Assembly (NCBI GenBank): GCA_030753015.1
Contig: JASMDC010000041.1
Span: 1-31,838, forward strand
Origin: Candidatus Undinarchaeales archaeon
GTDB taxonomy: Archaea > SpSt-1190 > JASMDC01
Length of the DNA stretch: 31,838 nucleotides
Direction: 5' to 3'
Under the pieces are notes generated by a model that did not search any database, was not told where the DNA came from, and worked only from the letters and a program-made list of their open reading frames with translations. Numbering within the stretch: position 1 is the stretch's first letter; each line of letters begins with the position of its first letter. This document shows, one piece after another, positions 12,688 to 31,805 of the stretch. The position numbers and the translations under genes are program-made.

Positions 12688-12701
12688 GGAATTGGAATTG
12701 C

Positions 12702-12839: not shown

Positions 12840-12864
12840 CCGGAACCGACCTTTCTTCCTACCA

Positions 12865-13475: not shown

Positions 13476-13488
13476 GGTGGTACACCCG

Positions 13489-13525: not shown

Positions 13526-13555
13526 CCTCGACACCCGTCCCGTACTCATCCACGC

Positions 13556-13933: not shown

Positions 13934-14132
13934 TGTTCGCACCACCAAGCACATACGCGGTCCGCGCCTAAATGCGCTTGCCCCTCCCCGCGGGGGGGAC
14001 CTGCGCCCGCACCCCGGCGGAGGAGTGCGTCCACCACGGCCGGTCATGCACACGTCCCGCATCGCTTATAAGGTCACAGCGGCTCTTAGTTCGTAAAGAG
14101 ATGGTCACCAACTACCGCAAGAGCGTGATACC

Positions 14133-14462: not shown

Positions 14463-14501
14463 GGGCTTGCACCGTCCGCAGCGGTCGAAAGGTTGAAATG
14501 G

Positions 14502-14867
14502 ATGAGGTGTCGACCCCGCCCCATAGCGACCTTCGCCTGCCGCAGCGTCTCGTTCAAGGGTATCGTTACCTGTGGGTTCGAGCTCTCAAGGACCGAGTAC
14601 ACCGTGATGATGCACCTTCTCTCCGACGCCGAGGAGCTCACGGCGAGCGAGATAGCCAAGGACCTGGCAAAGGACCGCACCACCGTCCAGCGCGCCGTGA
14701 TGTCGCTCACCGGAAAGAACATCCTACGCCGCCGACAGTCCAACAATCCCCGGGGCGGGTATACCTTCTTCTACTCCATCAAGGACAAGGACCAGCTCAA
14801 GCAGCGGATCCTCGACATCATCGAGCAGTGGACCGCAGAGATACGCCGTGAGATGACCGCTTGGTAG
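14502..14867 (+). CDS. Archaeal TrmB/MarR-like winged-helix transcription regulator
   Basis: FAC..IVTCGFELSRTEY..LTASEIAKDLAKDRTTVQRAV..RRQ.N..GGY.F.Y..W; start uncertain. Confidence 0.85.
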   Translation: MRCRPRPIATFACRSVSFKGIVTCGFELSRTEYTVMMHLLSDAEELTASEIAKDLAKDRTTVQRAVMSLTGKNILRRRQSNNPRGGYTFFYSIKDKDQLKQRILDIIEQWTAEIRREMTAW

Positions 14868-14874
14868 GACGCCC

Positions 14875-17800
14875 TTACAGTGGCAGGGAGGTGCACTCGC
14901 AGGCACAGAAGCGCTTGGACATCGTGCATCGCTCCCGGTCCACCCGCAGCTCGCACCCCACCAGACAGTCTGCGCAGTAGATGCTCACGCTGCACGGGTC
15001 CTGGGACACGGTCGTGTAGATGTCCGTCCGCTCGCCCTCGGTAGCGGTCGGGTCCAGCACCCCCAGCGCCGCGTACACAAATACGTTGGACGGGACCAGG
15101 GCGTCGGTCCACACCGTCCCGTCCTGGTGCTCGGCGACCACCCACAGGCGGTAGCTCTCGCCCATGGTCGTCGGGAACATCTGGCCGGTAAGCTCGGACG
15201 TGTCGCCGCGGCCCAGGGCCACCGTGCGCCGCTCCTCGCTCCCGCCCACCACAAGGCCTTCCTTGCTTACGGCACGGACGAGCACCGTGCCCACAAAGGA
15301 CTTGGGGACCGTGTTGCGCACCGTCAGCGTGGCCCGCGCCTCGCCGGCGGTGTACATCTCGTCCAGAGGGTTGTTGGCAGCGTCGGTGAAGGCGGCTTCC
15401 GTGATCTCGAGCTCAAGGGGCCTTACCTCCAGGCTGGCGTCCGGGTAGCCTAGGCGGACCCGGGCCCGTTCGCCCTCGCACCACGTGTTCATCACACGGC
15501 CCTTGCACCGGCTGGTTGCGTACCCCTGGCCGGGGAGCACCTGGCGCTCGACCACCGCACCGTCCGCGTCGCGCACCTCCACGCCGATGGAGAACACCGC
15601 GTTGGCCATCTCTGCGCTCAGAACCAGCTCCTCGGTCGCGATCCCGAGCTCCTGTACCGGCCCGGTGACCTCGTGGACCCTGGCCGATCCCTCCACCACC
15701 CTGTTCTGCGCGTCGGCGAGGAACACCTCGACCGTCACCGGGTAGGTGTGTGCCGTCACGGCCACCGCACCTGTGACCTGCTCGCCGGTGTAGCCCTCGG
15801 AGGTCCTTTCCCCGTCGCGGAGGAAGTAGGCGTCGGCCACGGTGAGCATGTCGGGCACCACCATGAACGAGATGGGACCGCGCGCGTCGAGCACCACCTC
15901 GCCCCCGGCGCGGCGCAGGACAGCGCCCGGCTGGACCGCCGTCACCGTCAGGTCGCCGTTGAGGGCGATCTCGCCTGTGAGCGCCCGGTAGTCGGCGCCC
16001 GGTGGGAGCACGATGCTCGAGAGGGAGCCTGCGAACCGCCGGTCCTCGGTGCACGAGCACGGGCACACGAAGCCCTTGGGGCACTCCGGGCAGGAGCAGG
16101 AGGGCAGGAGATGTAGGGAGAGGTCGGCAGCACCCGCAAAGCTGCGGAACCCGGAGTTGCGCACCTCCAGCGAGAGGCGGACACGCTCGCCGTGGTAGAA
16201 GGTCCGCTGCTCGGCCAGTCCCCGGAGGATGGCCAATCGGACGTCGACGCGGGGCATGGACAGCTTGCACTCGCGCAGGCAGCTTTCGGCGTCGTCCCCG
16301 TTCAGGCACCCGCGCTGGCAGGTCACCAGGGACGGCGGCACGCTCTCGCCCGCACCGTCCTCGTCCATCCTTCCGTCGCCGTCGTTGTCCCGGCCGTCGA
16401 CGGGGTCCTCGTCGACACGGTCGTCACCGTCCTCGTCGGCGCCGTTACCGCACTTGCGCAGGCACGGTCCCGGGTCGGGGAACACGCCGCACTCCAGCTC
16501 GCAGGACACGTCCATCTCCACGCACGCACTAGTGCACGCGGACACCTGGTCGATCGCCACGAGCGCCTGGCACATCTCGTTGCACGTGCCCAGGCTTCCG
16601 CAGTCCGTGGCGTCCAGGGCGCACGAGCCTCCGCAGCATACGCCCACTGCGCTGGTGCAGGCCTCGCCGTCACCGCTCCCGGCACAGCCCACGTCGGAGC
16701 CGGTGTCGCAGCCCGAGGCGCCGGCCACGCACGAGCCGCCGCAGCACTTCCCTTCGCTGGCGCCCAACACGCAGCTATCGCCGTCCCGGTCCGCGCACCC
16801 CACTGCCGATGAGCAGGTACCCACGCACGCGATGCGTGCGTCCTCATCGCCGGGATGGACCAGAGCGCACATGGGACCGCATTCCAGAGTGCAGCTGTCA
16901 TCGGCCCGTTCCTCCGCCTCGAGCCCGCCTGGCAGGCAGCACAGGTAACCCGACTCGTCTCCGCAGATGTCGAAGGTCAGCCCCGGCACGTCCGGTCCCG
17001 AGCATGAGCCCCCCTCGCCTAGTGTAGGGGGGACCGCAGCGATGCCGCCGAGGTCGTCGAGGCAGCAGGCGATGATGCGCTTGGCGTCCTCCTCGACGAT
17101 GGGCCCGGTGCAGGAGTAGGTGGTCGTCGTCCGTGTGCCGTCCGGATTGTGGCACACGCACATGCCCAGGTGGCGCTGGCAGTGGCCCACCTCGGCGCCG
17201 CACTCCTCGCGACAGATGCGGGAGCAGCCCGCCTCCGAGCGCGACGCGTACTCGAAGCACTCCTCGGCCGAGATGAACATGTCCTCCGCCTCGATGGCGG
17301 CCAGCGCCTGGACGGCTTGCTGTTGGCGCGCGGACCACTCGTCGGTGTTGCCGTCGGTGATGTCGCCCTCTCCCGGGCCGCACCGGTCCGCGAGCATGAG
17401 CCCGGGGTATACGTGGCCTAGGGTGGACACGTCCTCGACCGTGGCCGATGTCCGCAGCATCCGGATGAGGTCGGCGAGCATGGCCTTGAACTCCTCAGCG
17501 TCGGTGTCGGTGTCAGGATCGCGGGACATCTCGATAAGGATGTCGGACAGGCGCTCCACCAGGGGGACGGCGTCGTACGGGGGCTCCTCGCCGCTGAGCG
17601 AGATCTCGGTGAGCTCGGTGTCGACCAGGGCGCTGATCGTGGTACGTAGGTCGGGGTAGGTGGCCAGGAAGTGGTCCACGAAGCTACGCAGGACCGTCAC
17701 CTTCTCTGCTACGAGCGCGGGACCGTGGGTGGCCTCGTCGCCCAGGAGCGTGCCCGAGCCGTCGAGGGTGCACACGTCCTTGACGTCGACGACGCGCTGG

Positions 17801-19371
17801 TAGGAGGTGGAGTAGTAGGTCCGCCGTTGGGCGGGGCTGGGGAGGTGGCACTCCTCGGGGACCATGGACGTCGCCACGGTCTCCTCGTCCCACGGTGCGA
17901 CATCGCAGGCATCGCTCAGGTCCACGTCCTCCAACGCGGGGTTCTGGAACGTACCCAGGGTGCCCAGGGCCACAGCACAGTGGTCCTTCTGCTGATCGAG
18001 GGCGTCCTCGAGCGCTTCCAGGTGGGCTGCGAGCACCTCGTACAGGTCGCGGAGGTTGTCGAGCGTGGTGAGCACATCGGTGCGGAAGTCGACCGTGTTG
18101 TCGAACCAGCCCTCGGGACAGGCGATCAGCCCCGTGTCGAGCACGCTCAACGGTGTCGGGTCCGTATCGGTGTGGGTCCAGTCGACCGTCGGCGAGTAGT
18201 CGTGGACCTCGCCCGCCTCGCCCTCCGCCCGCTCGCGGCAGAACCGGTCGCCGATGGCCTGACCACCGTCGTCCACCTTCACGGGTTCGGGCCGACCGCT
18301 GCCCTTCAGCAGGCCGTACACGGTGGACCGGAACGCAGGCTCGCAAAGGTTCTTCTGGAACTCTCCGGCGGCGTTGGCGGTACCGGCCTGGTCGTTGCCC
18401 GCAAGCGCCACGATGTACCGTCCGCCCTGCTCCTCGAAGGCCACGATGAAGGGCGCGTCGTACCGCAGGGCCAGCTCGCCCGCGGTGAAGTCCAGCTCCT
18501 CGCTGCCCACGTACACCTTGTTGGCGGCCTGGTCGTACCGCACCCGCATCCCGTCCTCCACGCCGTCGAGCACCGAGTTGGACGTGCTCGAGCCCAGGAG
18601 CACGAGGTTGCCGCCGGGGACCGCGCCTGTGTGCTCGACCACCGCCATACCGAGCTCGGCGCCCAGCACGAGGGCCTTGGCCCGGTCATGGCTCCCTACC
18701 CCGGAGCCGTACACGACCGTGCCATCGCCGCCTGTGCACTTCCCGTCGCTGCAGCCCTCGTAGCACGGGTAAGCGTCGCCGTTCACGACCAGCGGCACAA
18801 GACCGTCGTTGGACCTGATCGACGCGTCGTACTGGCGGACGTTGTCGGGGGAGAACAATCGGTCGTACGCGTCACAGTAGCGCTCGTGGTCGGGCTCGAT
18901 GCATCCCTCGGGGAGAGGGCCTGAGGGACCGGAGGGACCGCCGGGGCCTCCCGGACCACCGGGACCGCCCGGACCGGGTGTCGGGGTCACCGCTCCAACG
19001 GGCACGGTGACGGAGATATAGGTACGACAGCCGGGGCCCATGTCGTAGGCGCCGCAGTCGACCCGGCCCTGGCACCGCAGTGAGTAGGTGCCCTCCACGT
19101 CGTAGGTGACGTCCACGACGCTGTTCCACGCGTCGCCCCAGATGAACTGGCCCGAGGAGTAGTCATCGATGTACATGTCGATGTGGTTCTCCTGGGAGTC
19201 GGTCCCGGTGCACTTCACCGTGACGGGCGCCTCAGCGCTGGCGGCAGCGACGCTCCCGTCGTTGGAGGATGAGTGGATCTGGGCACCGTTGACGAACACG
19301 TTCACCGTGGGCCGGGCCAGCGCAAGGGCCAGCGCGAGCACGCACAGGACCGCGAGCATCCTCGACCTCAT
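14875..19371 (-). CDS. Giant secreted Cys-rich protein C (1498 aa): signal peptide, Pro/Gly linker, S-layer-like domain, helical scaffold, Cys repeats, DxDGD Ca-binding motifs, Ig-like domains, 8-Cys C-terminus
   Basis: ATG 19371 overlaps the upstream stop as ATGA; leader MRSRMLAVLCVLALALALA; shares KDVCTLDGSG, ITDGNTD.W, WCEG..YP.A.LEV and the terminal Cys motif with genes A and B. Confidence 0.92.
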   Translation of the reverse strand: MRSRMLAVLCVLALALALARPTVNVFVNGAQIHSSSNDGSVAAASAEAPVTVKCTGTDSQENHIDMYIDDYSSGQFIWGDAWNSVVDVTYDVEGTYSLRCQGRVDCGAYDMGPGCRTYISVTVPVGAVTPTPGPGGPGGPGGPGGPSGPSGPLPEGCIEPDHERYCDAYDRLFSPDNVRQYDASIRSNDGLVPLVVNGDAYPCYEGCSDGKCTGGDGTVVYGSGVGSHDRAKALVLGAELGMAVVEHTGAVPGGNLVLLGSSTSNSVLDGVEDGMRVRYDQAANKVYVGSEELDFTAGELALRYDAPFIVAFEEQGGRYIVALAGNDQAGTANAAGEFQKNLCEPAFRSTVYGLLKGSGRPEPVKVDDGGQAIGDRFCRERAEGEAGEVHDYSPTVDWTHTDTDPTPLSVLDTGLIACPEGWFDNTVDFRTDVLTTLDNLRDLYEVLAAHLEALEDALDQQKDHCAVALGTLGTFQNPALEDVDLSDACDVAPWDEETVATSMVPEECHLPSPAQRRTYYSTSYQRVVDVKDVCTLDGSGTLLGDEATHGPALVAEKVTVLRSFVDHFLATYPDLRTTISALVDTELTEISLSGEEPPYDAVPLVERLSDILIEMSRDPDTDTDAEEFKAMLADLIRMLRTSATVEDVSTLGHVYPGLMLADRCGPGEGDITDGNTDEWSARQQQAVQALAAIEAEDMFISAEECFEYASRSEAGCSRICREECGAEVGHCQRHLGMCVCHNPDGTRTTTTYSCTGPIVEEDAKRIIACCLDDLGGIAAVPPTLGEGGSCSGPDVPGLTFDICGDESGYLCCLPGGLEAEERADDSCTLECGPMCALVHPGDEDARIACVGTCSSAVGCADRDGDSCVLGASEGKCCGGSCVAGASGCDTGSDVGCAGSGDGEACTSAVGVCCGGSCALDATDCGSLGTCNEMCQALVAIDQVSACTSACVEMDVSCELECGVFPDPGPCLRKCGNGADEDGDDRVDEDPVDGRDNDGDGRMDEDGAGESVPPSLVTCQRGCLNGDDAESCLRECKLSMPRVDVRLAILRGLAEQRTFYHGERVRLSLEVRNSGFRSFAGAADLSLHLLPSCSCPECPKGFVCPCSCTEDRRFAGSLSSIVLPPGADYRALTGEIALNGDLTVTAVQPGAVLRRAGGEVVLDARGPISFMVVPDMLTVADAYFLRDGERTSEGYTGEQVTGAVAVTAHTYPVTVEVFLADAQNRVVEGSARVHEVTGPVQELGIATEELVLSAEMANAVFSIGVEVRDADGAVVERQVLPGQGYATSRCKGRVMNTWCEGERARVRLGYPDASLEVRPLELEITEAAFTDAANNPLDEMYTAGEARATLTVRNTVPKSFVGTVLVRAVSKEGLVVGGSEERRTVALGRGDTSELTGQMFPTTMGESYRLWVVAEHQDGTVWTDALVPSNVFVYAALGVLDPTATEGERTDIYTTVSQDPCSVSIYCADCLVGCELRVDRERCTMSKRFCACECTSLPL

Positions 19372-22300
19372 GCAATCGCCTCCAGGATGCAATCGCAGTC
19401 ACAATTATAAGGAGTGACGGTGCAGCGCCCCCGCTCGATACGCAGCTCGCAGGTCGAGAGACATTGCACGCACGCGACCCGTGCCCGGCAGCCCTCGTGG
19501 TCCATGGATGTGAACACGTCGTTGCGGGCGATGCCACCGGTAGCGCTCTGGGGGATGTTGAGCCCGGCCATGGGGAAGAGGACCGTCGGGACGACCTCGT
19601 CGAGCCATACTGCGCCGTCGCGGGCATGTGCCGTTACCCGGACCCGCAGCGTCATCCCGGGGGTCGCGTCGACGGGGGCCGACTCCGCCGTCATCGTGGA
19701 GCCCCTGTCATCGAGCCCGCGGTCGACGGCGACCTCGCGCTCCGATTCGGTGATGGCGAGACCGTCGTCGCCGATTATGGCGATCGTGACCGTGCCCGTG
19801 AACCCCGAGGACGCCTGGTTGGCCAGCTCCACGCGCACCCGCACCGTGCGGGCAGCGGACCGCCCGCCGACCACAGATCCGCCGTCGTCCACGAAGGCCG
19901 CATCGGTCACCACAAGGGCAGGCCGACGTACCTCGAGGAACGCACGCGGGTACGAGAGGCGCACACGCTCGTGGAGGCCCTCGCACCAGGTCAGGAGAGC
20001 AGGTCCCGTGCACAGGTCCGCGGCCCGTCCCTGTTCGAGGAGGATACCCTCGGCGAGAGTGGTACCGCCGCCCTCGACGCGGTAGCCGATCCGGAACAGG
20101 AGGTCGGCCTGGGTGCCGGTGATGTCGAGCGGGGCCGAGGTGAAGGTGCTCTCCTTGACGGGCCATGCGATCTCGTGTGTGCGCTCGGTACCGATTACCG
20201 GCGTACCGTCCCAACCGACGAGGTATATTGTGAGGGAGACGGGGACCAGCTGCGTGGTGAACGACACCGCACCGAACGCCTCCTCTCCCGGATGCCCGGT
20301 GGTGGCACGCTCGCGCCCGCCCACCGTGAACCACGCGTCGGCCACCGTGAGCTTGCCCGGCGCACCTATCCCGTAGAAGGGGCCGTGCGGTTCGCCGACG
20401 ATCTTGCCCGCAGCGTCTCGGACGGTGGCGACCGGGCGGACGGTCGTGCCCGCCAGGGAGGCGCCGAGCTCAACGGGGTCCGTGAGGACGCCCTGCTTCT
20501 GTCCCGGGCCGACCACGAGCTGTGTGGTGGTGAGGATGACGAGCTCTTCTACCGAGCAATCGCACGGGCAGTCGTCGCCGACGGGGCACACGGAGCACGC
20601 GCAGTCGCGGTTGATCTCAAGGACCACGTCGACCTTCCCGGTGAAGCCCGTGCCGCCCCGGTTCTCGACGGTGAGATGCAGCCGGGGGCGTTCACCGGTG
20701 TGGAACGACTCGGCCTCCTGCCCGTCGCGCACGAGGGCGAGGGACGCGTGGATCCGGGGGTGGACGGCGCGGCACATCTGGAGGCAGAGGGTGATCTCGG
20801 GCAGGTCGTCCGAGCTGGTCAGGCAGCCCAACTCGCAGTGCCGCAGTCCTTCCGGCATGGAGGGCGAGGCGACGCCCGGACAGCCCTCAAAGCACATCGA
20901 GCGTGCCCCGGACAGCGGGAACTGGTCGATGCATCGCAGCTCGCAGGCGATGTCGGCACCCTCGCAGCGCTGTCGGCATGCCTGGGCGAGGGCCGGGCGC
21001 TCGGGATAAGCGTTCTGGCACTCTGTGAGGCAGCTGGCGGCAAGGCACGGCGGCCAGCCGCGGGGCCGGTCGCACGACGAGGCGAAACGCACGCACGCGC
21101 CCGAGCCCGGGTTCAGGGCGAAGGTGACGACCTCAGGGCATGCACCGCACGACTTCCCGCCGGTCGCGCAGGAGCCGCCGCAGCAGACGCCTGTCGGTCC
21201 GTCCACCTCGCACACGCCGCCCTCGACCGTGTCCGCACAGAGCGATGGTACGTCCTCGCAACCGTTGGCGCCGGCAACGCACCCCCCTCCGCAGCATAGC
21301 CCGGACGCACCGTCGATGCTGCATTCGGCGCCGTCATCGGCGCTGACGCAGCCGTGACCGGGGCAGGCCGACCATCCGTACGGTGCATCGCACGGCGAGG
21401 GGAAGCGCACGCACTTGCCCGATAAGGGATCCTTTGCATAGGTGTCGACCTGCTCGCACGTCATGCACGAACTGGCGCCCACGGCACAATTACCGCCACA
21501 GCAGGTGCCGACACCCTGTCCGACGAGGCAGGGCAAGCCCTTCCCATCGTCACCGCACGCGGTGTCCGGGACGCACCCCGTGGCACCTACTGCACACGAG
21601 CCTCCGCAGCACTGGCCCTGGGCGCCCGCGACGGTGCAGGCGGTGCCGTCCTCCTGACCCGTGCAGCCGAAGCCGTCGCAGTCGGTCCAGCCTGCGGGGA
21701 CGTCGCACGTGGACTCGAACCGCGTGCACCCGCCCGCGTTGGGATCCCGGACCCACACCGGCGAGCGCGGGCAGGCGGTGCACTCCTCGCCGCCCGTGAG
21801 GCAGCGGCCGCCGCAGCACACACCATTCTTATTGTCAAAGGAGCAGGATGCCAGCTCGTCACGGCCCACACAGGCATCGACACGACCCGCGCACATGAGC
21901 GCGTGGACCATGCACTGGTCATCGCAGCAGAGGCCCTGTACACCGTCTACCTCGCACGCGCTCTCATCACCCTTCCCGGCGCACTGCTCGTCCTGCAGCC
22001 CGCAGGCATGCCGGCAGACGAGGCGTCTTGTGGAGTGGCGTGCATACTTGCCGTCGCACAGCTCCTCGCAGGAGAGACCGCACCCTTCCTCGGTGATGGG
22101 CAGCTCGGGCTCGAGGCCCGGTCCCCGGCAGCAGAGCTCGTCGACGGTCTCGGTGCACCAGCTCACGGATATACCCGTCGACGCCCGCGCCCCCGGGCCA
22201 AGGCGACATGCACCACCCCACCGGTCCTTGTAGGCCGGGTCGGATAACCGGGATACGGTCACGATCCCGTCGGGCTGTGAGGCATGGACGAGCGAGTCAT

Positions 22301-25262
22301 CACCAGTGAATATGCCCGCGTGGACGACTCCTTCACCATCCTCACCCCTGAGGAACACCACGTCGCCCGGGCGAAGCTTGCGCCATCCGACGCGACCGCC
22401 GCCGTTGGCCTCGCATGCTTCGTGCTGCGCTGCCGGCGTGCGGGGGAGCTCGACGGCGACCTCGCGCATGACGGCGAGCACGAGACCTGCCCCGTCGACA
22501 CCGTCACGCGATGTTCCACCGTTCACGTAGGGTACTCCGAGCCAGGTACCCGCAGCGTACGCGATGGCACCGCCGCTCCATGTGGTCCCCTCGACATCGT
22601 AGATCCGCTGGCAGCATGTGGTGAGCGAGTCGGACCCGCCGTCCGTGCCGTCCTCTCCGGGGATGGGAGCGTCCGGGCCCGGGACATCCTCTCCCGGGGG
22701 TATCTCTCCAGCCGCCCCGTCGGGCGTCGCGCCCGGTGTCGAGCCGGAGCTCGAGCCTGGTGAGGACGATCCGGGGTAGGAGTTACCGCCACCGCTGGTC
22801 GTGTCGTAGCCGAAGCACATGCCGTCGGTGAGGAACAGTCCTTCCGGATCCCACGCAGCGAGCGCCAGGAGGTTGGCGAGGCCGTCACCGGACCAGGCGT
22901 CCGTGTTGCCGTCGCTGATGGACGTTGATGTCACGGTGGCGTAGCAGCCGCCGCGCTTGCCCTGGGGCGGGCAGTCGTCGAGGTGCGAGGGCGGGCCTTG
23001 GTCGGACGTGTCATCGTCGGGCTTCTGCTCCTCCTCGGGCTCCTCAGCGTCCTCGTCCCCGGTCCCGTCCTCCTCTCCATCCTCCTCGCCCAGCTCCGTG
23101 CACTCCTCGCCCTCGAACAGGGCCGGGAAGCTCGCGTCGCAGTCCTCCGCGTTGGACCAACCCTCCGAGGACTGGACTAGGAAGGCCTGCGCCGTCGCGC
23201 TCATCCCCCCCGCCGCACCGATGTCGCCGACGTACTCCTTGAGGAAGAGGACAAGGGCCTTGAGCCCCTCCTGGGTGGGCTCTACCTTGTCGGCGTTCTT
23301 GGACATGGCGGTGAAGAGCTCGGCCTCGTGGAAAAGGAGGAATATATTGCTCGAGCCTTCCAGCACGGGCTTGGGATCGGTGGCCACGCCGTTCACCCTG
23401 ATCTCGAAGTGCAGGTGCTGGCCCGTGGAGCAACCCGTCGTCCCCATCAGTCCGATGCGCTCGCCCTGCTCGACGACCTGGCTCATGGTCACGTCGATGT
23501 GCCTGAGGTGGGCGTACCGCGTCTGGAGGCTGTTGCTGTGGTCGATGAACACCGCGTTCCCATAGCAGCCTCCCGAGGAGGCGAGGAGGATCGACGCGAC
23601 CTTGCCGGCGGCTGCAGCGACGACGGGGACCGTACCGGACTCGGCAATGTCGTACCCCTTGTGGACGTGGGGCTTGCACAGTCTGGTGTCCGCGCACAGA
23701 GCGTCCCGTTGCCCGAAGGGCGACGTCTCGTGCCCCTCGGTGGGCCAGATTATGGCGTCCTTGTCGTCCAGCTTCTTGCGCGTTTCTTCCGCCATCTTGT
23801 GGACCTCGTCGGTCAGCTCCTTGAGCGTGTGGACGAAGTCCTGCATGTCACTGATGACCACGTCGAGCCTTGCTATGACCTCGGTAGGTCCGTGCGCCCC
23901 GTCGTCGCCCAGGAAGGTCCCCGAGCCGTCGAGGGTGCACACGTCCTTGACGTCCACGGCGTCCTGCTGGCACTGCTGGAGCGCGATGCGGTCCACGTTG
24001 GCATGTTTGCCCTTCTCGGTGGCGAGGTAGGTCTTCCTGCCGTCGTCGAGGTCCTTGGGCTCGCACCCCTTGACACCGAACGGGTCCGAGGTCTCTGTCA
24101 GACCTCCGTCCTCGGGGACCGGGTAGGTGGTATCGGCGCCCCAGCCCGCGTCGGTGGTGATCTCTGTGATCGTCGGCTCCGGCCCATCGCTCTCCTCCTC
24201 ATCGTCGTCCTTCTCTCCGCAGGTGCCGCACCCGGTGCCGGTCTCGCAGTCCTCGGCCACGCACATGCTGCACGTCCTGACGGCCGCAGGGAGGTGGCCT
24301 GAGCCCTTCTTGCACTTCCAGGCCTCGTCCGCCAGGCAGGTCTCGGCGACCGCCTGGTAGCACAGTTCCGGACCGAAGCCGTCGCCGATGACAAGGGCCT
24401 CTAGCGGGTGGGCCTCCGTGACATCGGGCTCGTACACGGGCGCCGGCTCCTTTTCCTCGGGCATGAGGTCGCCCTCGATACCCTCGCTCGGCGTGTAGGG
24501 CTCCTCTTCCTCCGCGGTCGTCGTCACGGGCTCCTCCTCGGGGACCTCCTCATCACCCTCGTCCCCGGCGTCATCGCTCGGTGCGAAGGGTTCCATCTCG
24601 CACGGTACACCGTACCGTGATGCGAACCTGTTGATCCTCCCGTGGCACTTCGCCTGCTGTGCGTAGAACGAGTCGCGCAGCGCCTTCAGTTCGTCGACGA
24701 AGGGCTCGTAGAACTCGATGAGGTCATCGAACAGCGTCTCGACCTCGGTGAGGTAGTCCACGACGTTGTTGTAGTTCTCGACCTCGGGGCACTCGGGCAG
24801 CTTGCGTTGTTCTCCTGCCCCGGACGTATCGTCCTGGCCGCCGTCGGTGCTCACATCGCCGGTCCCTTCCTCGGTACCTGCACCCGTGCCCGTCCCGGTC
24901 CCTTCCTCTGCGTCCGTCACTTCCTCTTCCGTGCCGAGGGAGGTCAGGTCGAGCTCCTCCTCGCCGGTATAGAGCAGCTGGTTGCCGGCCTCGTCCGCGT
25001 CCTCGGCACCGAAGCGCTCCTGTATATAGGCCTTGCAGGGGCTCACGCTCTCCTGTCCTCCGGGGAAGCAGAACGCCATGTGATGGGTCTGGGCATCGCC
25101 TGCTGCGGGCAGGTCCATGGGCGCGGTCTCGTACTTGACGTCGGCGCAGGGATCCACGAACTCCTCGGGTCCCTCGCCCAGGACGGGCGTCAGCACCAGG
25201 AGCGCGACCGCTAATGCAATAGCTGCGGCCATCCTCCCGATGCAAAGGGACCTTCGTACCAT
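19368..25262 (-). CDS. Giant secreted Cys-rich protein B (1964 aa) with an M23 peptidase and a catalytically dead NlpC/P60 domain
   Basis: Signal peptide MVRRSLCIGRMAAAIALAVALLVLTPVLG; GAGGT upstream; colinear with gene A over most of its length. Confidence 0.93.
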   Translation of the reverse strand: MVRRSLCIGRMAAAIALAVALLVLTPVLGEGPEEFVDPCADVKYETAPMDLPAAGDAQTHHMAFCFPGGQESVSPCKAYIQERFGAEDADEAGNQLLYTGEEELDLTSLGTEEEVTDAEEGTGTGTGAGTEEGTGDVSTDGGQDDTSGAGEQRKLPECPEVENYNNVVDYLTEVETLFDDLIEFYEPFVDELKALRDSFYAQQAKCHGRINRFASRYGVPCEMEPFAPSDDAGDEGDEEVPEEEPVTTTAEEEEPYTPSEGIEGDLMPEEKEPAPVYEPDVTEAHPLEALVIGDGFGPELCYQAVAETCLADEAWKCKKGSGHLPAAVRTCSMCVAEDCETGTGCGTCGEKDDDEEESDGPEPTITEITTDAGWGADTTYPVPEDGGLTETSDPFGVKGCEPKDLDDGRKTYLATEKGKHANVDRIALQQCQQDAVDVKDVCTLDGSGTFLGDDGAHGPTEVIARLDVVISDMQDFVHTLKELTDEVHKMAEETRKKLDDKDAIIWPTEGHETSPFGQRDALCADTRLCKPHVHKGYDIAESGTVPVVAAAAGKVASILLASSGGCYGNAVFIDHSNSLQTRYAHLRHIDVTMSQVVEQGERIGLMGTTGCSTGQHLHFEIRVNGVATDPKPVLEGSSNIFLLFHEAELFTAMSKNADKVEPTQEGLKALVLFLKEYVGDIGAAGGMSATAQAFLVQSSEGWSNAEDCDASFPALFEGEECTELGEEDGEEDGTGDEDAEEPEEEQKPDDDTSDQGPPSHLDDCPPQGKRGGCYATVTSTSISDGNTDAWSGDGLANLLALAAWDPEGLFLTDGMCFGYDTTSGGGNSYPGSSSPGSSSGSTPGATPDGAAGEIPPGEDVPGPDAPIPGEDGTDGGSDSLTTCCQRIYDVEGTTWSGGAIAYAAGTWLGVPYVNGGTSRDGVDGAGLVLAVMREVAVELPRTPAAQHEACEANGGGRVGWRKLRPGDVVFLRGEDGEGVVHAGIFTGDDSLVHASQPDGIVTVSRLSDPAYKDRWGGACRLGPGARASTGISVSWCTETVDELCCRGPGLEPELPITEEGCGLSCEELCDGKYARHSTRRLVCRHACGLQDEQCAGKGDESACEVDGVQGLCCDDQCMVHALMCAGRVDACVGRDELASCSFDNKNGVCCGGRCLTGGEECTACPRSPVWVRDPNAGGCTRFESTCDVPAGWTDCDGFGCTGQEDGTACTVAGAQGQCCGGSCAVGATGCVPDTACGDDGKGLPCLVGQGVGTCCGGNCAVGASSCMTCEQVDTYAKDPLSGKCVRFPSPCDAPYGWSACPGHGCVSADDGAECSIDGASGLCCGGGCVAGANGCEDVPSLCADTVEGGVCEVDGPTGVCCGGSCATGGKSCGACPEVVTFALNPGSGACVRFASSCDRPRGWPPCLAASCLTECQNAYPERPALAQACRQRCEGADIACELRCIDQFPLSGARSMCFEGCPGVASPSMPEGLRHCELGCLTSSDDLPEITLCLQMCRAVHPRIHASLALVRDGQEAESFHTGERPRLHLTVENRGGTGFTGKVDVVLEINRDCACSVCPVGDDCPCDCSVEELVILTTTQLVVGPGQKQGVLTDPVELGASLAGTTVRPVATVRDAAGKIVGEPHGPFYGIGAPGKLTVADAWFTVGGRERATTGHPGEEAFGAVSFTTQLVPVSLTIYLVGWDGTPVIGTERTHEIAWPVKESTFTSAPLDITGTQADLLFRIGYRVEGGGTTLAEGILLEQGRAADLCTGPALLTWCEGLHERVRLSYPRAFLEVRRPALVVTDAAFVDDGGSVVGGRSAARTVRVRVELANQASSGFTGTVTIAIIGDDGLAITESEREVAVDRGLDDRGSTMTAESAPVDATPGMTLRVRVTAHARDGAVWLDEVVPTVLFPMAGLNIPQSATGGIARNDVFTSMDHEGCRARVACVQCLSTCELRIERGRCTVTPYNCDCDCILEAIA
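22200..22570 (-). other. NlpC/P60 domain in protein B, catalytic Cys replaced by Gly
   Basis: WLGVPYVNGGTSRDGVD-G-AGLV (GGG codon at 22493-22491, Gly924), LPRT, LRPGDVVF, HAGIF and LVHAS. Confidence 0.9.
23360..23755 (-). other. M23-family zinc endopeptidase domain in protein B
   Basis: WP..G..TSPFG.R, HKGYD (HxxxD; H534/D538), V.AAAAGKV, YGNAVFIDH, TRYAHL, IG.MGTTG.STGQHLHFEIR (HxH; H616/H618) and DP..L. Confidence 0.95.
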
Positions 25263-25292
25263 GTCTCATTGACCTCTCATATGTTCTCTGTC

Positions 25293-28200
25293 CTATATTG
25301 CTCCCATGATGCACTCGCAGTCGCACTGGTCGCGGGTGACCGTGCACCTCGTCCGGTCCACACGCAGCTCGCAGGTGGTAAGGCATTCGTCGCACCTGAT
25401 GCTGGCCTGGCATCCCTCGTGGATTATCGTTGTGAAGATCGTGTTCCGCACCAGTCCCTCGGTCGTGTCCTGGGTCACGGTCAGCTCGGCGAACGGGAAG
25501 AGCGCGGCGGGTACGATCTGGTCGAGCCAGGTCCTCCCGTCAATGTCCGTGGCCTGGACCCAGATGCGGAAGGACGCGCCCGGCTTGGGCCACACGAAAC
25601 CTGACTCTACCTCGATGGACGAGCCTGCGCCCTCCAGGCCACGGTCGACGCCCAGCGCCACGACCGACTCGGGGACCGCCATGCCGTCGGTTCCAACGAC
25701 CTTCACGACCACGGTCCCCTCGAACCCCTGCGCGGCCAGGTTGGTCAGCTCGATCTTCGCCCGGACCGAGTCGCTCCCGGATAGCCGGTTCACGGCGAAT
25801 CCATCGTTGTCGACGAATGCCGCGTCGGCCACGTCGAGCATGGGTCGCTTCACTTCCAGGTAGGCGTCAGGGTAGGAGAGCTTCACGCGCTCGTGCAGCC
25901 CCTCGCACCACGTGGTGAGGTCGCGTCCCTCGCACAGACCGGGTGGTCTGCCCTGTTCGTCTAGCGTGCCCTCGGCCAGGACCGCGCCGGATGCATCCGT
26001 CACCTTGTACCCGAGCCGGATGACGAAGTCCACGTGGGCGGTATCGACCTCGAGCTCGCCCGTGGTGAACGTCTCCATCCTCGTCGGCCAGGTAATGGTG
26101 TGGGCCCAATCGGTGCCCTCGATGGGTTCCCCGTCCCACCCGACCATGAACAGGTCGAGCGTCACGGGCACCTGGTCGGTGGAGAACACAACGAACCCAA
26201 CCGCGTCCTCACCGGGGTAGGCGGCGGTAGCGCGCTCACGGTCGTTGACCAGGAACGACGCGTCGTTCACCGCAAGCTTCTCGGCCTCACTGATACCATA
26301 GAAACTGCCCAGGGGCTTGCCTATGACCTGGTCGTAGGTATCGCTGACGATGGCGACTGGCTGGACGGTTGTGCCAGCAAGCTCGCTCTGCAGGGTGACC
26401 GGGTCGGTGAGGTACCGCGCCTTCTCGCCGGGGGCGAGCATGATGTTGTCGAGCGAGAACACCTGGCGTTCATCCTCCTCGCAGTCGCAGCTGCACATGT
26501 AGTCGTCCGGACAGGGCTCGCACTCGCAGGCGTCGAGCACCCGCAGTGAGACGTCCATGTCGCCCGCGAACCCGGCGCTGCCGCGGTTCTCCACCTCCAC
26601 CCGCATGCGCGGGCTCTCGCCGGTGAAGAACGACTCGGCCTCCTGGCCGCCGCGGAGCAGGGCGAAGGTCACGTGGACGCGCGGGTGGATGGCCCGGCAC
26701 AGCCTGAAGCACAGCAGGGTGGGCGCGGGCTCGCCATTGTTGAAGTCGATGCAGTCCTCCTCGCACCACCGGAGGCTCTCGGGCATCAGTTCGGTGATCA
26801 CACCCGGACAGCGCTCGATGCACGCAAGTCGCTCGTCGCGTCCTGCGAAGTCCATGATGCAGCGCTCCTCGCAGGATATGTCCATCGTCTCGCACAGCTC
26901 CCTGCAGTTGCGCGCCAGGGACGGGTTCTCAGGGTACTCGTTCTGGCACTCGGAGAGGCAGCTCTCCACGATGCACGGTGGCCATCCCTTTGGCACGTCG
27001 CATGGTGTCGAGTACTGCTTGCACTCCTGGGTCACCGGATTGAGGGCGAACGTGACCACCTGGGGGCAGCCACCGCAGATGGTGCCACCCAGCACGCAGT
27101 GGCCACCGCAGCACACTCCGTCCTGGTCATCGGACTCGCACGCTCCACCCTCGGCCTTCCCCTCGCAGGGAACGGTATCGAGGACACATTGCGTACCGCC
27201 GACGACGCACCCATTGCCGCAGCAGATGCCGCGGTCCTCGTCCTTGGTGCACGCGGCACCGTTGATGAGACCAGCACAACCGTACCCTTCGCAGGCGGTG
27301 AACCCGTACGGGACGTCGCAGGGGGTAGAGAACTCCTTGCACGCATCCGTTACCGGGTCCTTGGCATGGGTGATCGCCTGCACGCACTCGCCGCACCGTG
27401 TGCCGCCCACCGCGCACTTCTCGCCGCAGCACACGCCGGGCACGTCCCTGGCATAGCACGGGACGCCGTTGCCCATGCCCTGACAGGTGTCGTCGGGCAC
27501 GCAGTCCTCAGCGTTGAGTGCGCAGGTGAAACCGCAGCATACGCCCAGTTCGCCTTCTTTGGAGCACTCGTACGTCTCGTCCGCTTCGGTGTCGCACCCG
27601 AAGTTCTCGCAGTCGACCCAGCCATCGGGCACATCGCAGGTGTTGGTGAACTTATCGCAGGCACCAGTATCGGGATTCTGAGCGTAGACTGTCATGTCCT
27701 TGCAGGAGCTGCAGTCACTCTCGCCGGTGAGGCACCGGCCTCCGCAGCACACGCCGGACTCGCCGTCGAAGGAGCAGGCGTCCAGGCTCATCAAGCCCAC
27801 ACAGACCTCCACCCGGCCAGCGCACATCAGAGCATGGACCATGCACTGCTCATCGCAGCACAGGCCCTTCATCCCGTCCACCTCGCAACCGGTCTCCTCC
27901 GGCTTGCTAGCGCACTGCTCGTCACGGGCACCGCACTTGTGCCGACAGACGAGGTACTTGAACGAGTGGCGCTCGTACTTGCCCTCGCACAGCTCCTCGC
28001 ACGTGAGACCACACTCCTCCTCGGTGATCTTCTTCTCGAGCTCGAGGCCGGGGCCCTGGCAGCATAGCTCCTCGGTGTCGTCCCCGCACCAGTCGATATC
28101 GAGCGCCTCGTAGCTGGCGCCGCCCTCCACGTACCGGCACCCGCCGGTCCAGTGCTCGCGGAAGTAGGAGTTGGAGAGCTGGACGATCTTGACCACATCG

Positions 28201-31200
28201 CCCGGCTTGGGCGCGTGGATCATCCGGTCGTTGCCCGTGTAGACGCCAACATGCGAGACACCGGGCTTATAGGTGTTCTCGAAGAACACGATGTCACCCG
28301 CCTGCAGATCGCCCCAGTCGACGTACGTCCCGCCGTTGCTCTCGCAGGCGAAGTACTGCTGCGAGGCGGTCCGGGGCACGTTGATGCCGTTCTCTCTGAG
28401 CACGTTCAGGGTGAGCCCCGAGCAGTCAACGCCCGAGCGGCTGGTGCCGCCGAACACGTAGGGCACGCCCAGCCAGCTCCGTGTAGTGTCCACGATGCCT
28501 CCGCCGGCCCAGGAGGAGTCCTCTATACCGAAGATGCGCTGGCAGCACTGCACGAACGGGTCCTTCTCGCTCTCGGGGATATCCTCTCCTGGTGTGATAG
28601 TGCCGTACCATGAGCCACCACCATCGATGGCGAGCGGTACCTCACTGCTATCGCCGTCGTCGACGGCCATCCCGCCACCCTCCTCGGTGTCGTAGTTAAA
28701 GCAGTCGGCGTCGTTGATGAAGAGCTTTTCCGGATCGATTTCCTTCATGAGGTCCAGCAGACGCGTGTCCGTCCACGCATCCGGGTTGGTATCGGTCACG
28801 GTGATGAGCGCCTCGGTCGCGTTGCACCCGCCCCGCTTCTTCTTCTCCGCGCAGATGGGTACAGGACGCCTCTCGGTAACGTTGCAGTCAACGGACCCGT
28901 CGATGGTGAAACCAGTGACATTTTCCACGAGCTGGTCGAGCCCGGTCTCAGTGTCGTTGAGCGGCTCGCACGTCTCCTTGTCGAAACGGGGACGCAGGTG
29001 CGGTGAGCATTTTTGCTCGTACTCCCAGTCCTTTGACGACCGGACGATGAACGAGGTGACGTTCTCGAAGAAGTCGGTGGTGGTGACATCGTTGGTAAGG
29101 TTACCTTTAACGAAGTTGACGAGGTTCTTGAGATCGTTCTGAGTGGCATTGACCTTCTCCATCCCGTCGGTGATGGTCTTCTCGAACTCGGCCAACGTCC
29201 CGGGATCGAGCGCGCTCGAGTTCACGTCCTCTAGGCTATCGGAGTTCTGCCCCATCAGCTCCTTCGACAGAGTGGCCGAGCGCTGCATGTTCTCCACGTA
29301 CGTCTCCATGATGGCGATGAGCGAGTCGAGCTTCTCGAGCACCTCCGTGGGGCCGTGCCCCTTGTCATCGCCGATGAAGAGGCCGGAGCCATCGAGGGTA
29401 CAGACGTCCTTTAGGTCGGCAGCCTCACGCTGGCAGCCCTCGAGCTCGAGCGGTTTGGCGACCGCATTGTAGCCCTTGACCGAACGGATGATGCCCTGTG
29501 CGCCGGACCCGAGGTCCTGGTACTGGTTCTTCTTGCACTCGGCGATGCCGAACGGCTCGGTCGCGAGGGTGGTGTTCATATCCTCGGTCCACTCCTTGAT
29601 GGTAGAGCTCTTCCCCGGGAGCTCCCGCCCCTCACGGTCCAGCTCGACCCATACCATATCGAACTTCTTCACGTTGCAGTTCATGGTGTCGTAATCGTAC
29701 TCAGTGATGACACCCTCATCATTGGTCTCGTAGCCGATCAAGCACGCGCACTCGGCACTGGTGAGGAGGAAATCGTTCCGACATTTCTCTTCCATCTCCA
29801 GGCGCTCGGGCTGTGAGAACACGTCCATGCAACCAGATGTGGTGCTCTTGCACTGCCAGGCACGCACGAATGCCTTCTCCTCAAGGTCTTCGATGTAGGA
29901 CTTCTTACAACAGACATAGGTCTCCTCGCAAAGAACCCCCTGCCCGGGGATGCCCCCTGCCATGCAGGGCGGGAGCGTGAGCTTACCGTTCGCGGCGTTC
30001 CCGCAGGTGGTGCAGTTTTGTCCGTAGCAGCACGGTTCGATCGTGCACATGGGGCACGACATGATCTCGGTGACGTTCCGGGTCCCGTTAACACCAGGAT
30101 CTATGTTGCACGCCCACCCTCTATTGGCGAGGCATCGGTCGGCAACCGCCTTTCCGCATACGCTGGGATCGAAGGAATCGTCAACGATAGCAGACTCGAT
30201 AGTGGCGTTGTTCTTGTCCGTGAGCTCCTTCATCCCGCATCCGTTGGCGTACGCCTCGATGAAGTCGTTGATGTCCGCATGACAAGCGGCCTGTTGGGAC
30301 GCGACCGCGGAGCGGAGCACTTTAACGTAACCGATGAGACGGGTGTAGAAGCCGGAGAGGTCCTCCACGAGCTTGATGTACTCGTCGCCGAAATCGGCCT
30401 TGTTGTCGTAGGAGGTACGCTCCGGGCACTTGAGGGCGCCGAAGTCGAGGGGCTGCAGTACAACGTCCTGGGCCTTGGCCGCGGCGTTCTCAGCAGCATT
30501 GCCCGCTGCATTCTCTGCAGCGCTGGGATCACTTTCACCCGCATTGGCGAACTTCCACTCCTCGGAGACGGGGACGGTGGTCGCCGTCTGATCAGCACCC
30601 TCGGGGGGGGTGTCCGGTGCGGAGTAGCTAATCCGCACATCGGGGATGAATCCCTTCACTGACGGATCGAGGGACTCGATAACGTTTACATGTCCTCCCT
30701 CGCCGTAGATATCACGTCCGAGGCGCGAGGTGTAGAACATCTGCCCGGGTTCCTCATAGGTGAAGGTGAGGCGTCCCGCGTCACTCTCCGACCCGATGGC
30801 GATCTTCTTGCCCTGCCCGTCCCGTAGTCCGTGCTTCTCGATGTAATCGATGCAGGCGGCCCGGTCGTACCCGGGTGACGAGTCCGTCTGTTTATCGGTC
30901 CCGTTCTTCTGCACGACGCAGAACTCCACGTGATATCGGCGGTCGCTCCCTGCAGCAGGCTCACCGGTTACCTGCAGCTTGACATCGGCGAAGAGACAGG
31001 GATTCTCAGCAAGCTGGCCAGAGGTGAGGTCCGTGAACGCTGTCTTATCCCCGTCACCCTTGTACTGGGTGACCTCGGTGCCGTTGTGGACCTTGAGAGA
31101 GTCTTTTGAGAAGAAGCCCTGGTCCCCCTTCATAGACTTCCAGAGGACATCCATACCATTTTCGAAGGTATTGTTGATGAGATCCTGGGGGAGCTTGTTG

Positions 31201-31805
31201 TCCACCCCGCAGGTGGCACGCTTACTGATATCCAGGTCGTCGGTGATGATGGACCAGTTATCATATCCGTCCCCTTTCACCTGCCACTTTCCCTCGTGAT
31301 ACCTGTACCGCCGGTTGCCGCAGAACATGTTCCCATCGGTGTACTCGATCTCCAGGGACGTGCCCCAGAGCTCCTGACCGGTGATATTGAGGGTAGTCAT
31401 GGTCTCTGCGGGTGGTTTTGAGTAGGGTTCGGGTGTGGGCTCGGGCGTGGGTTCGGGCGTGGACGTCGGTGGAGTTTCCTCTGGCTGTTGTGCGACAACT
31501 TCCTCGCACTTCCCGTCCATGCCGCAATTGAGGCCGTCATAACACAGAGAGCCGCAGCACTCCTTGTCTTTCTCGCCGCAGTGCTGCCTGCACACGTCCT
31601 CGGTCATTTGATCGTAGATATCGTCCTTCGTGCTGTCGACGGGGTCGCACTGCTCGTTGACAACGTCCCCCACCGAGTTGACGATCTCGTACTTATCCGT
31701 GTCCTTGTTCAAGCAACAGAACACCTTGTTGTCGGCCGCCATCGCGATGAGCATGACGACGACCGCTAGCGATACTGCGAATCTGAGTCCATTTCCCCTT
31801 TCCAT
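25293..31805 (-). CDS. Giant secreted Cys-rich protein A (2170 aa) with an intact NlpC/P60 domain
   Basis: Signal peptide MERGNGLRFAVSLAVVVMLIAMAA; PEPT linker; shared scaffold motifs; 30-bp gap to gene B. Confidence 0.93.
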   Translation of the reverse strand: MERGNGLRFAVSLAVVVMLIAMAADNKVFCCLNKDTDKYEIVNSVGDVVNEQCDPVDSTKDDIYDQMTEDVCRQHCGEKDKECCGSLCYDGLNCGMDGKCEEVVAQQPEETPPTSTPEPTPEPTPEPYSKPPAETMTTLNITGQELWGTSLEIEYTDGNMFCGNRRYRYHEGKWQVKGDGYDNWSIITDDLDISKRATCGVDNKLPQDLINNTFENGMDVLWKSMKGDQGFFSKDSLKVHNGTEVTQYKGDGDKTAFTDLTSGQLAENPCLFADVKLQVTGEPAAGSDRRYHVEFCVVQKNGTDKQTDSSPGYDRAACIDYIEKHGLRDGQGKKIAIGSESDAGRLTFTYEEPGQMFYTSRLGRDIYGEGGHVNVIESLDPSVKGFIPDVRISYSAPDTPPEGADQTATTVPVSEEWKFANAGESDPSAAENAAGNAAENAAAKAQDVVLQPLDFGALKCPERTSYDNKADFGDEYIKLVEDLSGFYTRLIGYVKVLRSAVASQQAACHADINDFIEAYANGCGMKELTDKNNATIESAIVDDSFDPSVCGKAVADRCLANRGWACNIDPGVNGTRNVTEIMSCPMCTIEPCCYGQNCTTCGNAANGKLTLPPCMAGGIPGQGVLCEETYVCCKKSYIEDLEEKAFVRAWQCKSTTSGCMDVFSQPERLEMEEKCRNDFLLTSAECACLIGYETNDEGVITEYDYDTMNCNVKKFDMVWVELDREGRELPGKSSTIKEWTEDMNTTLATEPFGIAECKKNQYQDLGSGAQGIIRSVKGYNAVAKPLELEGCQREAADLKDVCTLDGSGLFIGDDKGHGPTEVLEKLDSLIAIMETYVENMQRSATLSKELMGQNSDSLEDVNSSALDPGTLAEFEKTITDGMEKVNATQNDLKNLVNFVKGNLTNDVTTTDFFENVTSFIVRSSKDWEYEQKCSPHLRPRFDKETCEPLNDTETGLDQLVENVTGFTIDGSVDCNVTERRPVPICAEKKKRGGCNATEALITVTDTNPDAWTDTRLLDLMKEIDPEKLFINDADCFNYDTEEGGGMAVDDGDSSEVPLAIDGGGSWYGTITPGEDIPESEKDPFVQCCQRIFGIEDSSWAGGGIVDTTRSWLGVPYVFGGTSRSGVDCSGLTLNVLRENGINVPRTASQQYFACESNGGTYVDWGDLQAGDIVFFENTYKPGVSHVGVYTGNDRMIHAPKPGDVVKIVQLSNSYFREHWTGGCRYVEGGASYEALDIDWCGDDTEELCCQGPGLELEKKITEEECGLTCEELCEGKYERHSFKYLVCRHKCGARDEQCASKPEETGCEVDGMKGLCCDEQCMVHALMCAGRVEVCVGLMSLDACSFDGESGVCCGGRCLTGESDCSSCKDMTVYAQNPDTGACDKFTNTCDVPDGWVDCENFGCDTEADETYECSKEGELGVCCGFTCALNAEDCVPDDTCQGMGNGVPCYARDVPGVCCGEKCAVGGTRCGECVQAITHAKDPVTDACKEFSTPCDVPYGFTACEGYGCAGLINGAACTKDEDRGICCGNGCVVGGTQCVLDTVPCEGKAEGGACESDDQDGVCCGGHCVLGGTICGGCPQVVTFALNPVTQECKQYSTPCDVPKGWPPCIVESCLSECQNEYPENPSLARNCRELCETMDISCEERCIMDFAGRDERLACIERCPGVITELMPESLRWCEEDCIDFNNGEPAPTLLCFRLCRAIHPRVHVTFALLRGGQEAESFFTGESPRMRVEVENRGSAGFAGDMDVSLRVLDACECEPCPDDYMCSCDCEEDERQVFSLDNIMLAPGEKARYLTDPVTLQSELAGTTVQPVAIVSDTYDQVIGKPLGSFYGISEAEKLAVNDASFLVNDRERATAAYPGEDAVGFVVFSTDQVPVTLDLFMVGWDGEPIEGTDWAHTITWPTRMETFTTGELEVDTAHVDFVIRLGYKVTDASGAVLAEGTLDEQGRPPGLCEGRDLTTWCEGLHERVKLSYPDAYLEVKRPMLDVADAAFVDNDGFAVNRLSGSDSVRAKIELTNLAAQGFEGTVVVKVVGTDGMAVPESVVALGVDRGLEGAGSSIEVESGFVWPKPGASFRIWVQATDIDGRTWLDQIVPAALFPFAELTVTQDTTEGLVRNTIFTTIIHEGCQASIRCDECLTTCELRVDRTRCTVTRDQCDCECIMGAI
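28131..28500 (-). other. NlpC/P60 (C40) cysteine hydrolase domain in protein A, Cys-His-His triad intact
   Basis: WLGVPYVFGGTSRSGVDCSGL (TGC at 28424-28422, Cys1128), VPRTASQQY, LQAGDIVFF, SHVGVY and MIHAP. Confidence 0.95.

Follow-up and report, generated by a model that had tools for sequence, protein, structure and literature searches.

The 31838-nucleotide window considered here is the whole of one contig (C53) from the genome of a Candidatus Undinarchaeales archaeon (genome G000; 3.85 Mb in 117 contigs, estimated to be 98.9% complete and 5% contaminated). Positions 14875–31805 are filled by three long, co-directional open reading frames on the minus strand, which we call genes A, B, and C. 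We think the chances are somewhat better than even that their products belong to a family of secreted, modular proteins that is specific to this lineage and presents hydrolases directed at bacterial peptidoglycan. The family has 21 members in this genome, and every match that the genome contains to three types of wall-cutting domain lies inside one of them (NlpC/P60, 4 of 4; M23, 4 of 4; SLT, 1 of 1), spread over 6 of the 21 proteins.

Gene A (25293–31805, minus strand) encodes 2170 amino acids that comprise a signal-like N terminus, a hypervariable N-terminal half, a helical core, an NlpC/P60 domain, cysteine-rich repeats, three Ig-like domains, and an 8-Cys tail. After an intergenic gap of 30 bp, gene B (19368–25262, minus strand; 1964 amino acids) repeats the scaffold of A with an M23 domain inserted in the helical core and an NlpC/P60 domain that has no catalytic cysteine. 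Gene C (14875–19392, minus strand) is without a catalytic domain and encodes 1505 amino acids from a TTG or 1498 from the ATG at 19371. This ATG overlaps the TGA stop of B as ATGA and is also where the protein atlas record begins C (at residue 8); a search of the atlas with C gave no usable match. An initial annotation of this DNA had reported three co-directional genes of 2170, 1964, and 1498 residues with the same gap and overlap, and the reading frame coordinates bear this out.

An indication of function comes from the domains recognized by Pfam. In A, an NlpC/P60 (C40; PF00877) domain at residues 1113–1221 (28143–28469, minus strand) scores 89 bits against a cut-off of 23, and 95.4 bits in the scan of the genome. 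It aligns to solved DL-endopeptidases, best to 3h41 (E 2.3e-21), with Cys, His, and His in place: the motifs DCSG, SHVG, and MIHAP fall on the catalytic residues of 3h41 and are conserved in the orthologue from a sister species (genome G001). In B, an M23 metallopeptidase domain (PF01551) at residues 533–630 (23373–23666, minus strand) scores 95.2 bits against 28.7 and aligns with 6muk (best, E 2.6e-17) and 3slu; its zinc ligands, in HKGYD (HxxxD) and HLHFE (HxH), are in place and again conserved in the sister species. The NlpC/P60 domain of B (residues 909–1018; 22209–22538, minus strand; 57.6 bits, above the cut-off) lacks the nucleophilic cysteine, with DGAG here and DGPG in the sister species where A has DCSG. 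Judged by its sequence, this domain is a conserved degenerate member of its family, most likely serving as a binding module for stem peptides. NlpC/P60 and/or M23 domains had been noticed in two of the proteins at the outset, and they do exceed their cut-offs in A and B, but the loss of the cysteine in B had been overlooked. No Pfam domain was matched in C. Searches against NCBIfam gave domain-level matches only, with whole-protein scores far below the equivalog cut-offs, indicating that only the catalytic domain is shared with the bacterial enzymes. The closest relatives of the NlpC/P60 domain of A that carry a source name are bacterial (Bacillota, Actinomycetota, and Chloroflexota); most rows carry no such name, and identities are mostly ~38–53%. 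We infer that the NlpC/P60 domain of A and the M23 domain of B would be active on peptidoglycan.

Such activity would have no evident target in the organism itself. Mur_ligase_M, Amidase_2, and Amidase_3 gave no match in the genome, and the positive controls in these searches were matched. Thus, nothing found suggests that the host has a murein-type or pseudomurein-type wall of its own on which the hydrolases could act, in keeping with the earlier statement that these are hydrolases in an archaeon without bacterial-type peptidoglycan. A role as an autolysin for the host's own wall was ruled out for want of a Mur ligase match. Because no Mur-ligase pathway was found in the organism, the substrate would most likely be foreign bacterial peptidoglycan.

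Outside the catalytic domains, the three proteins are paralogues built on one chassis. A and B are 45% identical (1403 columns), and B and C are 34% identical over the last 666 columns. The motif KDVCTLDGSG..GD...HGP is present in all three, and a second motif reads VTDTNPDAW in A, ISDGNTDAW in B, and ITDGNTDEW in C; the form first given for the latter, I(T/S)D.N.D.W, holds for B and C and departs from A in its first residue, which is V. Cysteines number 135 in A, 115 in B, and 78 in C, and they are conserved in preference to other residues: 109 of the 135 in A (81%) are kept in B as against 33% of non-Cys positions, and 102 of the 115 in B (89%) are kept in its orthologue as against 50%. By a hydropathy heuristic, A, B, and C each have one N-terminal hydrophobic segment and none at the C terminus, which agrees with the signal peptide first proposed for each protein insofar as the segment is signal-like. 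The same heuristic finds an N-terminal hydrophobic segment within the first 70 residues of all 21 family members and a segment at the very C terminus of none (one member, C51_36709, has one at 1606–1624 of its 1678 residues). From these features we infer that the chassis proteins are exported and disulfide-bonded.

The C-terminal part of the chassis (25296–26753 in A; 19371–20825 in B; 14878–16305 in C, by profile matches; all minus strand) is ~480 amino acids long, contains invariant cysteine columns, and ends in a tail of 8 cysteines. AlphaFold2 modeled the last 485 amino acids of B, from a 32-row alignment, as successive beta-sandwich domains and a cysteine-rich beta tail at a mean predicted local distance difference test score (pLDDT) of 85.7; Foldseek matched this part to generic Ig/MG strings only (probability 1.0, TM ~0.2). 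The helical core of C (residues 415–760; 17113–18150, minus strand), which includes KDVCTLDGSG and ITDGNTDEW, was modeled at a pLDDT of 72.9 with helices of 40–48 residues that pack as an intramolecular bundle (pLDDT ~85–96). A Foldseek search of the core against the Protein Data Bank (PDB) gave 0 matches at E ≤ 0.001; the best row, a trypanosome three-helix-bundle receptor, had an E of 0.1 and was treated as no match. The cysteine-rich repeat region of A (residues ~1240–1700; 26706–28088, minus strand) had no Pfam match, and the non-catalytic scaffold matched no Pfam or NCBIfam family. The alignments, motifs, and AlphaFold2 model thus uphold the initial description of three paralogues with a common scaffold, Ig-like domains, and an 8-Cys tail, and the lack of a Pfam or NCBIfam match, together with the lack of a significant PDB match for the helical core, agrees with its not having recognized the scaffold as a described system.

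This chassis extends well beyond the window. The C-terminal 485 amino acids of B match 22 places in the genome, and clustering of the 157 open reading frames of at least 900 amino acids yielded the family of 21 that includes A, B, and C. Twelve members stand in tandem arrays (three in the window, three on contig C39, and pairs on C27, C36, and C51), and 9 are solitary. In a maximum-likelihood tree of the last 480 amino acids (24 rows: the 21 members and three G001 orthologues), A and B were sisters (100/100), as were the members of the C27 pair (100/100) and of the C36 pair (100/99), and the C39 trio grouped with a member on C30. A position of C next to A and B was not resolved, and the tree contained several long branches and did not resolve the deep nodes. 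Because tandem neighbors group together, the arrays are, according to this tree, separate local duplications and not copies of a conserved A/B/C triad.

These observations bear on the model of the initial annotation, namely that A, B, and C form a single hetero-oligomeric extracellular appendage in which each subunit is required. The tightness of the operon, with its short gap and then its ATGA overlap, suggests translational coupling; the order A-B-C, followed by a regulator and a thioredoxin, is kept in the sister species; C, although non-catalytic, is conserved better than A and B, which could be expected of a structural core subunit; and the long core helices could in principle mediate oligomerization. 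Against this, those helices are modeled as packing within one chain, 9 of the 21 members are solitary and the arrays consist of 2 or 3, and tandem neighbors are each other's closest relatives in the C-terminal tree, as independent local duplications would be. The hetero-oligomer idea draws on operon structure and conservation in one sister species only, and the organization of the family weakens it, so that we regard it as unlikely. Nor is a defined three-subunit system supported as such: A, B, and C are 3 of 21 paralogues, and the family shows no conserved triad. With regard to synteny, the three-gene order is kept in the one sister species available, but it is not repeated across the family.

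What does vary among the paralogues is the set of inserted domains. Pfam recognized M23 in 4 members, NlpC/P60 in 4, and SLT, Lectin_C, FG-GAP, and Kazal_2 in one each. A member on contig C20 combines M23 with NlpC/P60, and a member on contig C21 (G000:C21:806-7132) combines M23 (2006–2320) with the only SLT domain in the genome (5831–6139), which interrupts the C-terminal Ig-like scaffold and leaves a piece of it on either side. The Lectin_C, FG-GAP, and Kazal members fit, as far as their sequences go, a chassis with swappable modules. We also considered whether the catalytic modules act on something other than peptidoglycan, such as the host's own envelope proteins or a gamma-glutamyl polymer, or are inactive structural relics. 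Some NlpC/P60 members hydrolyze poly-gamma-glutamate or act as acyltransferases; the nucleophile of the NlpC/P60 domain of B has been lost in both species, so modules can evidently be kept for non-catalytic roles; and the M23 matches in the C41 and C21 members are weak (44.9 and 43.2 bits). Yet the triad of A and the zinc ligands of B are intact and conserved in the orthologues, and M23, NlpC/P60, and SLT are the classic set for cutting the peptides and glycans of murein, here co-occurring in single members (those on C20 and C21). We therefore consider a non-peptidoglycan or purely structural role very unlikely and continue to favor peptidoglycan as the substrate.

We compared the rates at which the three proteins have diverged between the two species. 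Flanking proteins have a median identity of 88% (33 with coverage above 0.7, of 35 with a match). C is 90% identical to its orthologue throughout, B is ~50% identical throughout, and A is 74–95% identical from residue 1100 on, while the head of A, its first ~1000 residues (residues ~25–1000 at 28806–31733, minus strand), is 25–47% identical. In the sister genome, the best match of this head is the orthologue itself (37–46%), indicating that the head diverged in place; a swap with the head of another paralogue is therefore unsupported. Such divergence is the pattern expected of a part that recognizes a target, a function that we would assign to the head tentatively and from its sequence.

A profile built from the C-terminal parts of A, B, and C was searched against 41 archaeal genomes. 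It matched 25 times in G000 and 26 times in G001 and found nothing in the 15 other genomes of the same class or in 24 other archaeal genomes; among 1.84 billion proteins it had 29 representatives. The helical core of C retrieved 3 proteins from a collection of 5.8 billion and, among 17 genomes of the class, matched only G000 and G001. A scan of species genomes found two loci on one contig of the congener, titled Candidatus Undinarchaeota archaeon, and one partial homologue, 94% identical, is labeled Methanopyri archaeon, so the public labels disagree. In the searches made, the chassis was thus found only in this genus. The genome of the host (3.85 Mb) and that of its congener (3.6 Mb) stand apart from the other 15 genomes searched in the class, which are 0.6–1.2 Mb, and the host is a large-genome relative of a DPANN group with conflicting public labels. 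Undinarchaeota are a DPANN group described as small-genome in the portion of the source consulted (PMC7414124), the main text of which contains 0 occurrences of M23, murein, or peptidoglycan. Literature searches on Undinarchaeota found no paper on the chassis family.

The lineage also bears on a further alternative, that the family is chiefly one of adhesins or contact proteins by which the archaeon attaches to bacterial partners or particles, with the hydrolases opening the wall locally in an episymbiont-like manner. The placement of the genome in a class of otherwise small genomes, with the sister contig titled Candidatus Undinarchaeota, would be consistent with such a life, as would the Lectin_C and FG-GAP modules of other members and the resemblance of the C-terminal part to the Ig/MG strings of adhesins and TEP/C3, at a generic level only (TM ~0.2). 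Moreover, all 4 of the genomes from one family of small genomes in this class contain M23 domains, and three of these domains sit in open reading frames of 1203–2297 amino acids (the loci are G005:C6:88049-88390, G009:C17:57457-57798, and G007:C3:1148-2260). On the other hand, a genome of 3.85 Mb at 98.9% completeness is unlike that of a reduced symbiont; the scaffold was not found in the 15 small-genome relatives, those carrying M23 included, by the C-terminal profile and helical-core searches; and no anchor to the archaeon's own surface was identified. We hold this view to be doubtful, if a little less so than the hetero-oligomer, and return to that of secreted proteins that display wall hydrolases.

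The initial annotation called for archaeal taxonomy and even coverage of the contig to be confirmed. Besides the cluster, the window carries a TBP gene (9702–10286), a response regulator fused to DUF835, and a DUF7557 protein. In the sister genome, orthologues A'-B'-C' lie in the same order and are followed by the same winged-helix regulator and thioredoxin, and upstream of A' the 136 kb contig holds an arginase-family gene, TopoVI A and B, RIO1, aIF1A, and MCM. These upstream genes map to the edge of another contig of the host's own genome (C35:1-1108, with the arginase-family gene at 233-1108, then TopoVI and MCM); the two contigs, C35 and C53, are thus neighbors split only by an assembly break just upstream of A. 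Six studies of marine or seawater metagenomes include runs that contain at least 95% of the words sampled from positions 14875–24800. Some of these runs may be the source of the assembly (run X11 is not so marked). Contigs from four runs tile 8000–27900 at even depth with no differences in the listed pieces, and one run contig spans 10258–17782, from the flank into gene C. A chimeric or bacterial contig is ruled out by the TBP gene on the contig, the synteny in the sister species, and the contigs tiling the junctions, and both parts of the check came out in favor of the contig, with MCM, aIF1A, RIO1, and TopoVI beside the orthologous cluster and the four-run tiling at even depth.

Taken together, these results lead us to propose that A, B, and C would be tandem members of a genus-restricted, expanded family of Sec-exported, disulfide-stabilized, elongated, and modular proteins. 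From the N terminus, the chassis would consist of a signal sequence, a variable head, a long helical bundle, cysteine-rich repeats, three Ig-like domains, and an 8-Cys knob, and it would display exchangeable modules at fixed insertion points. In the A-B-C operon, those modules would be peptidoglycan endopeptidases of the bacterial type: A would display an active-looking NlpC/P60 DL-endopeptidase; B, an active-looking M23 endopeptidase with a Cys-less NlpC/P60 domain most likely limited to binding stem peptides; and C would be a non-catalytic paralogue. Acting on foreign peptidoglycan, the proteins would lyse neighboring bacteria, breach their walls, or harvest wall fragments, and they may be retained on the cell surface.

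Several points weigh against this proposal. The hydrolase role, expression, and localization of A, B, and C are predictions, the signal peptides are called from hydropathy alone, and no RNA run was listed as containing the stretch. No LysM, SH3, PG_binding, or similar domain was found in A, B, or C by Pfam and NCBIfam (E ≤ 0.01). NlpC/P60 enzymes are also able to cut other gamma-glutamyl or acyl bonds. The Mur ligases count as not found rather than as proven absent, in an assembly of 117 contigs with 5% contamination. Finally, no wall hydrolase is recognizable in 15 of the 21 members; the family as a whole may therefore have another purpose, for instance adhesion or surface architecture, and lysis may be secondary.

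The neighborhood of the cluster offers some further observations. Convergent with C lies a winged-helix (TrmB/MarR-like) regulator (14493–14867, plus strand) that adjoins the cluster in the sister species too (85%), and beside it lies the thioredoxin (14133–14462, plus strand), a neighbor likewise kept there (71%). The break in the assembly just upstream of A, at the window end (31838), takes in the operon's promoter region. Scans of the window for tRNA and Rfam families gave no match. Positions 8900–14100 form a low-GC island (43–49% as against 60% for the genome) that contains TBP, three toxin-antitoxin pairs (ParE/MazE-type, ParE/Phd, and PemK with DUF7557), a small PKD protein, and a tyrosine-recombinase fragment (13556–14062). 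The island is absent at the matching place in the sister species. Loose contig ends occur in several runs (at 9978, 10317, 13695, and 13729), and variants are concentrated at 10103–10251, which suggests that the borders of the island vary between strains. The possibility that the cluster is cargo of this integrase-fragment island is ruled out because the sister species keeps the cluster without the island. Farther away, the window encodes a transglutaminase-like cysteine protease (Peptidase_C93/Transglut_core; 6865–7908, minus strand) and a membrane protein, unmatched in Pfam, whose N-terminal part is acidic and repeated (1–1569, minus strand).

Elsewhere in the genome, the DsbA-like family Thioredoxin_4 has seven strong domain matches, nine in all. 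The seven lie on contigs C82, C92, C63, and C59, several of them in tandem in frames of 655–772 amino acids. VKOR was not found in the genome. The Thioredoxin_4 proteins may be the oxidative-folding machinery for the cysteine-rich exoproteins. The 157 large open reading frames reach 8347 amino acids, and one of 4130 amino acids is 15.4% Cys (examples of large or cysteine-rich frames are C40:16585-41628 and C51:104057-116449 of G000). Two other large paralogue families have 19 members (~930 amino acids) and 16 members (cysteine-rich). The 19-member family has a signal-like N terminus and a C-terminal GNPGNW..C motif, with no Pfam match in two members scanned. Its members lie within ~2 kb of chassis genes at seven loci (on C117, C21, C41, C29, C30, C36, and C39), directly downstream of them at three of the seven, and none is at the cluster in the window; they may be partner proteins of the chassis family. 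On a more speculative note, and with low confidence, we picture the host as a marine archaeal bacterivore or contact-dependent killer in which A-B-C would be one lytic surface structure with a rapidly evolving target-recognition head, drawn from a private arsenal of giant disulfide-rich exoproteins (the 21 together with the families of 19 and 16).

That archaea antagonize bacteria has been shown only recently, for small enzymes of haloarchaea. In the uncultured marine archaeon considered here, all recognizable wall-cutting domains are gathered in genus-specific, giant, predicted secreted proteins, and the head region of A evolves far faster than the rest of the genome. If active on murein, these proteins would constitute a second, structurally very different archaeal way to attack or feed on bacteria and would provide a handle on the lifestyle of an unusual large-genome DPANN relative. 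The catalytic idea is already known; the novelty lies in the chassis, in its presence in as many as 21 copies, and in its being the sole carrier of the genome's wall hydrolases.

The closest precedents, as far as the consulted portion of the source describes them, are Woldo and Danwoldo of Halogranum salarium, secreted archaeal peptidoglycan hydrolases for which bacterial killing was shown experimentally (PMC12352652). In both cases, an archaeon lacking murein encodes a wall hydrolase of bacterial type, M23 or another, and the catalytic domain is of bacterial ancestry with evident domain shuffling. As a candidate export signal, A, B, and C each have the one N-terminal hydrophobic segment called by hydropathy. 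Woldo and Danwoldo differ in consisting of a catalytic domain and recognized PG_binding_1 domains behind a Tat signal, whereas here the modules sit in cysteine-rich proteins of 1500–2200 amino acids, on a chassis of no known family with 21 paralogues and no recognized wall-binding domain. The survey that described them required a catalytic and a cell-wall-binding Pfam domain, and A, B, and C fall outside its definition of a modular hydrolase, as no recognized wall-binding domain was found in them at E ≤ 0.01. A second parallel, by description, is with the 'Archaeovorins' of predatory Omnitrophota, giant secreted proteins that, as proposed in the part of the preprint consulted (10.1101/2023.11.21.568195), bind prey belonging to the other domain of life and break down its wall. 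Archaeovorins resemble the proteins described here in their great size, in secretion (predicted here), and in joining binding repeats to wall-degrading modules, including SLT; in contrast to them, they are bacterial, far larger, made of different domain sets, present in one or few copies per genome, and not described as cysteine-rich in that part of the text (0 occurrences of 'cysteine'). The catalytic domains themselves resemble bacterial NlpC/P60 (LytE/LytF/CwlS/RipA type) and M23 (ShyA, MepM, and lysostaphin type) domains, above the cut-offs and with the catalytic residues aligned, although in bacteria such domains belong to autolysins or weapons, in which they are joined to LysM, SH3, or coiled-coil parts. 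Lastly, the successive beta-sandwich domains of the C-terminal part recall bacterial adhesins, TEP1, C3, and alpha-2-macroglobulin (Foldseek probability 1.0), a likeness that is generic (TM ~0.2, identity 7–13%) and comes with no evidence of a thioester or of common descent.

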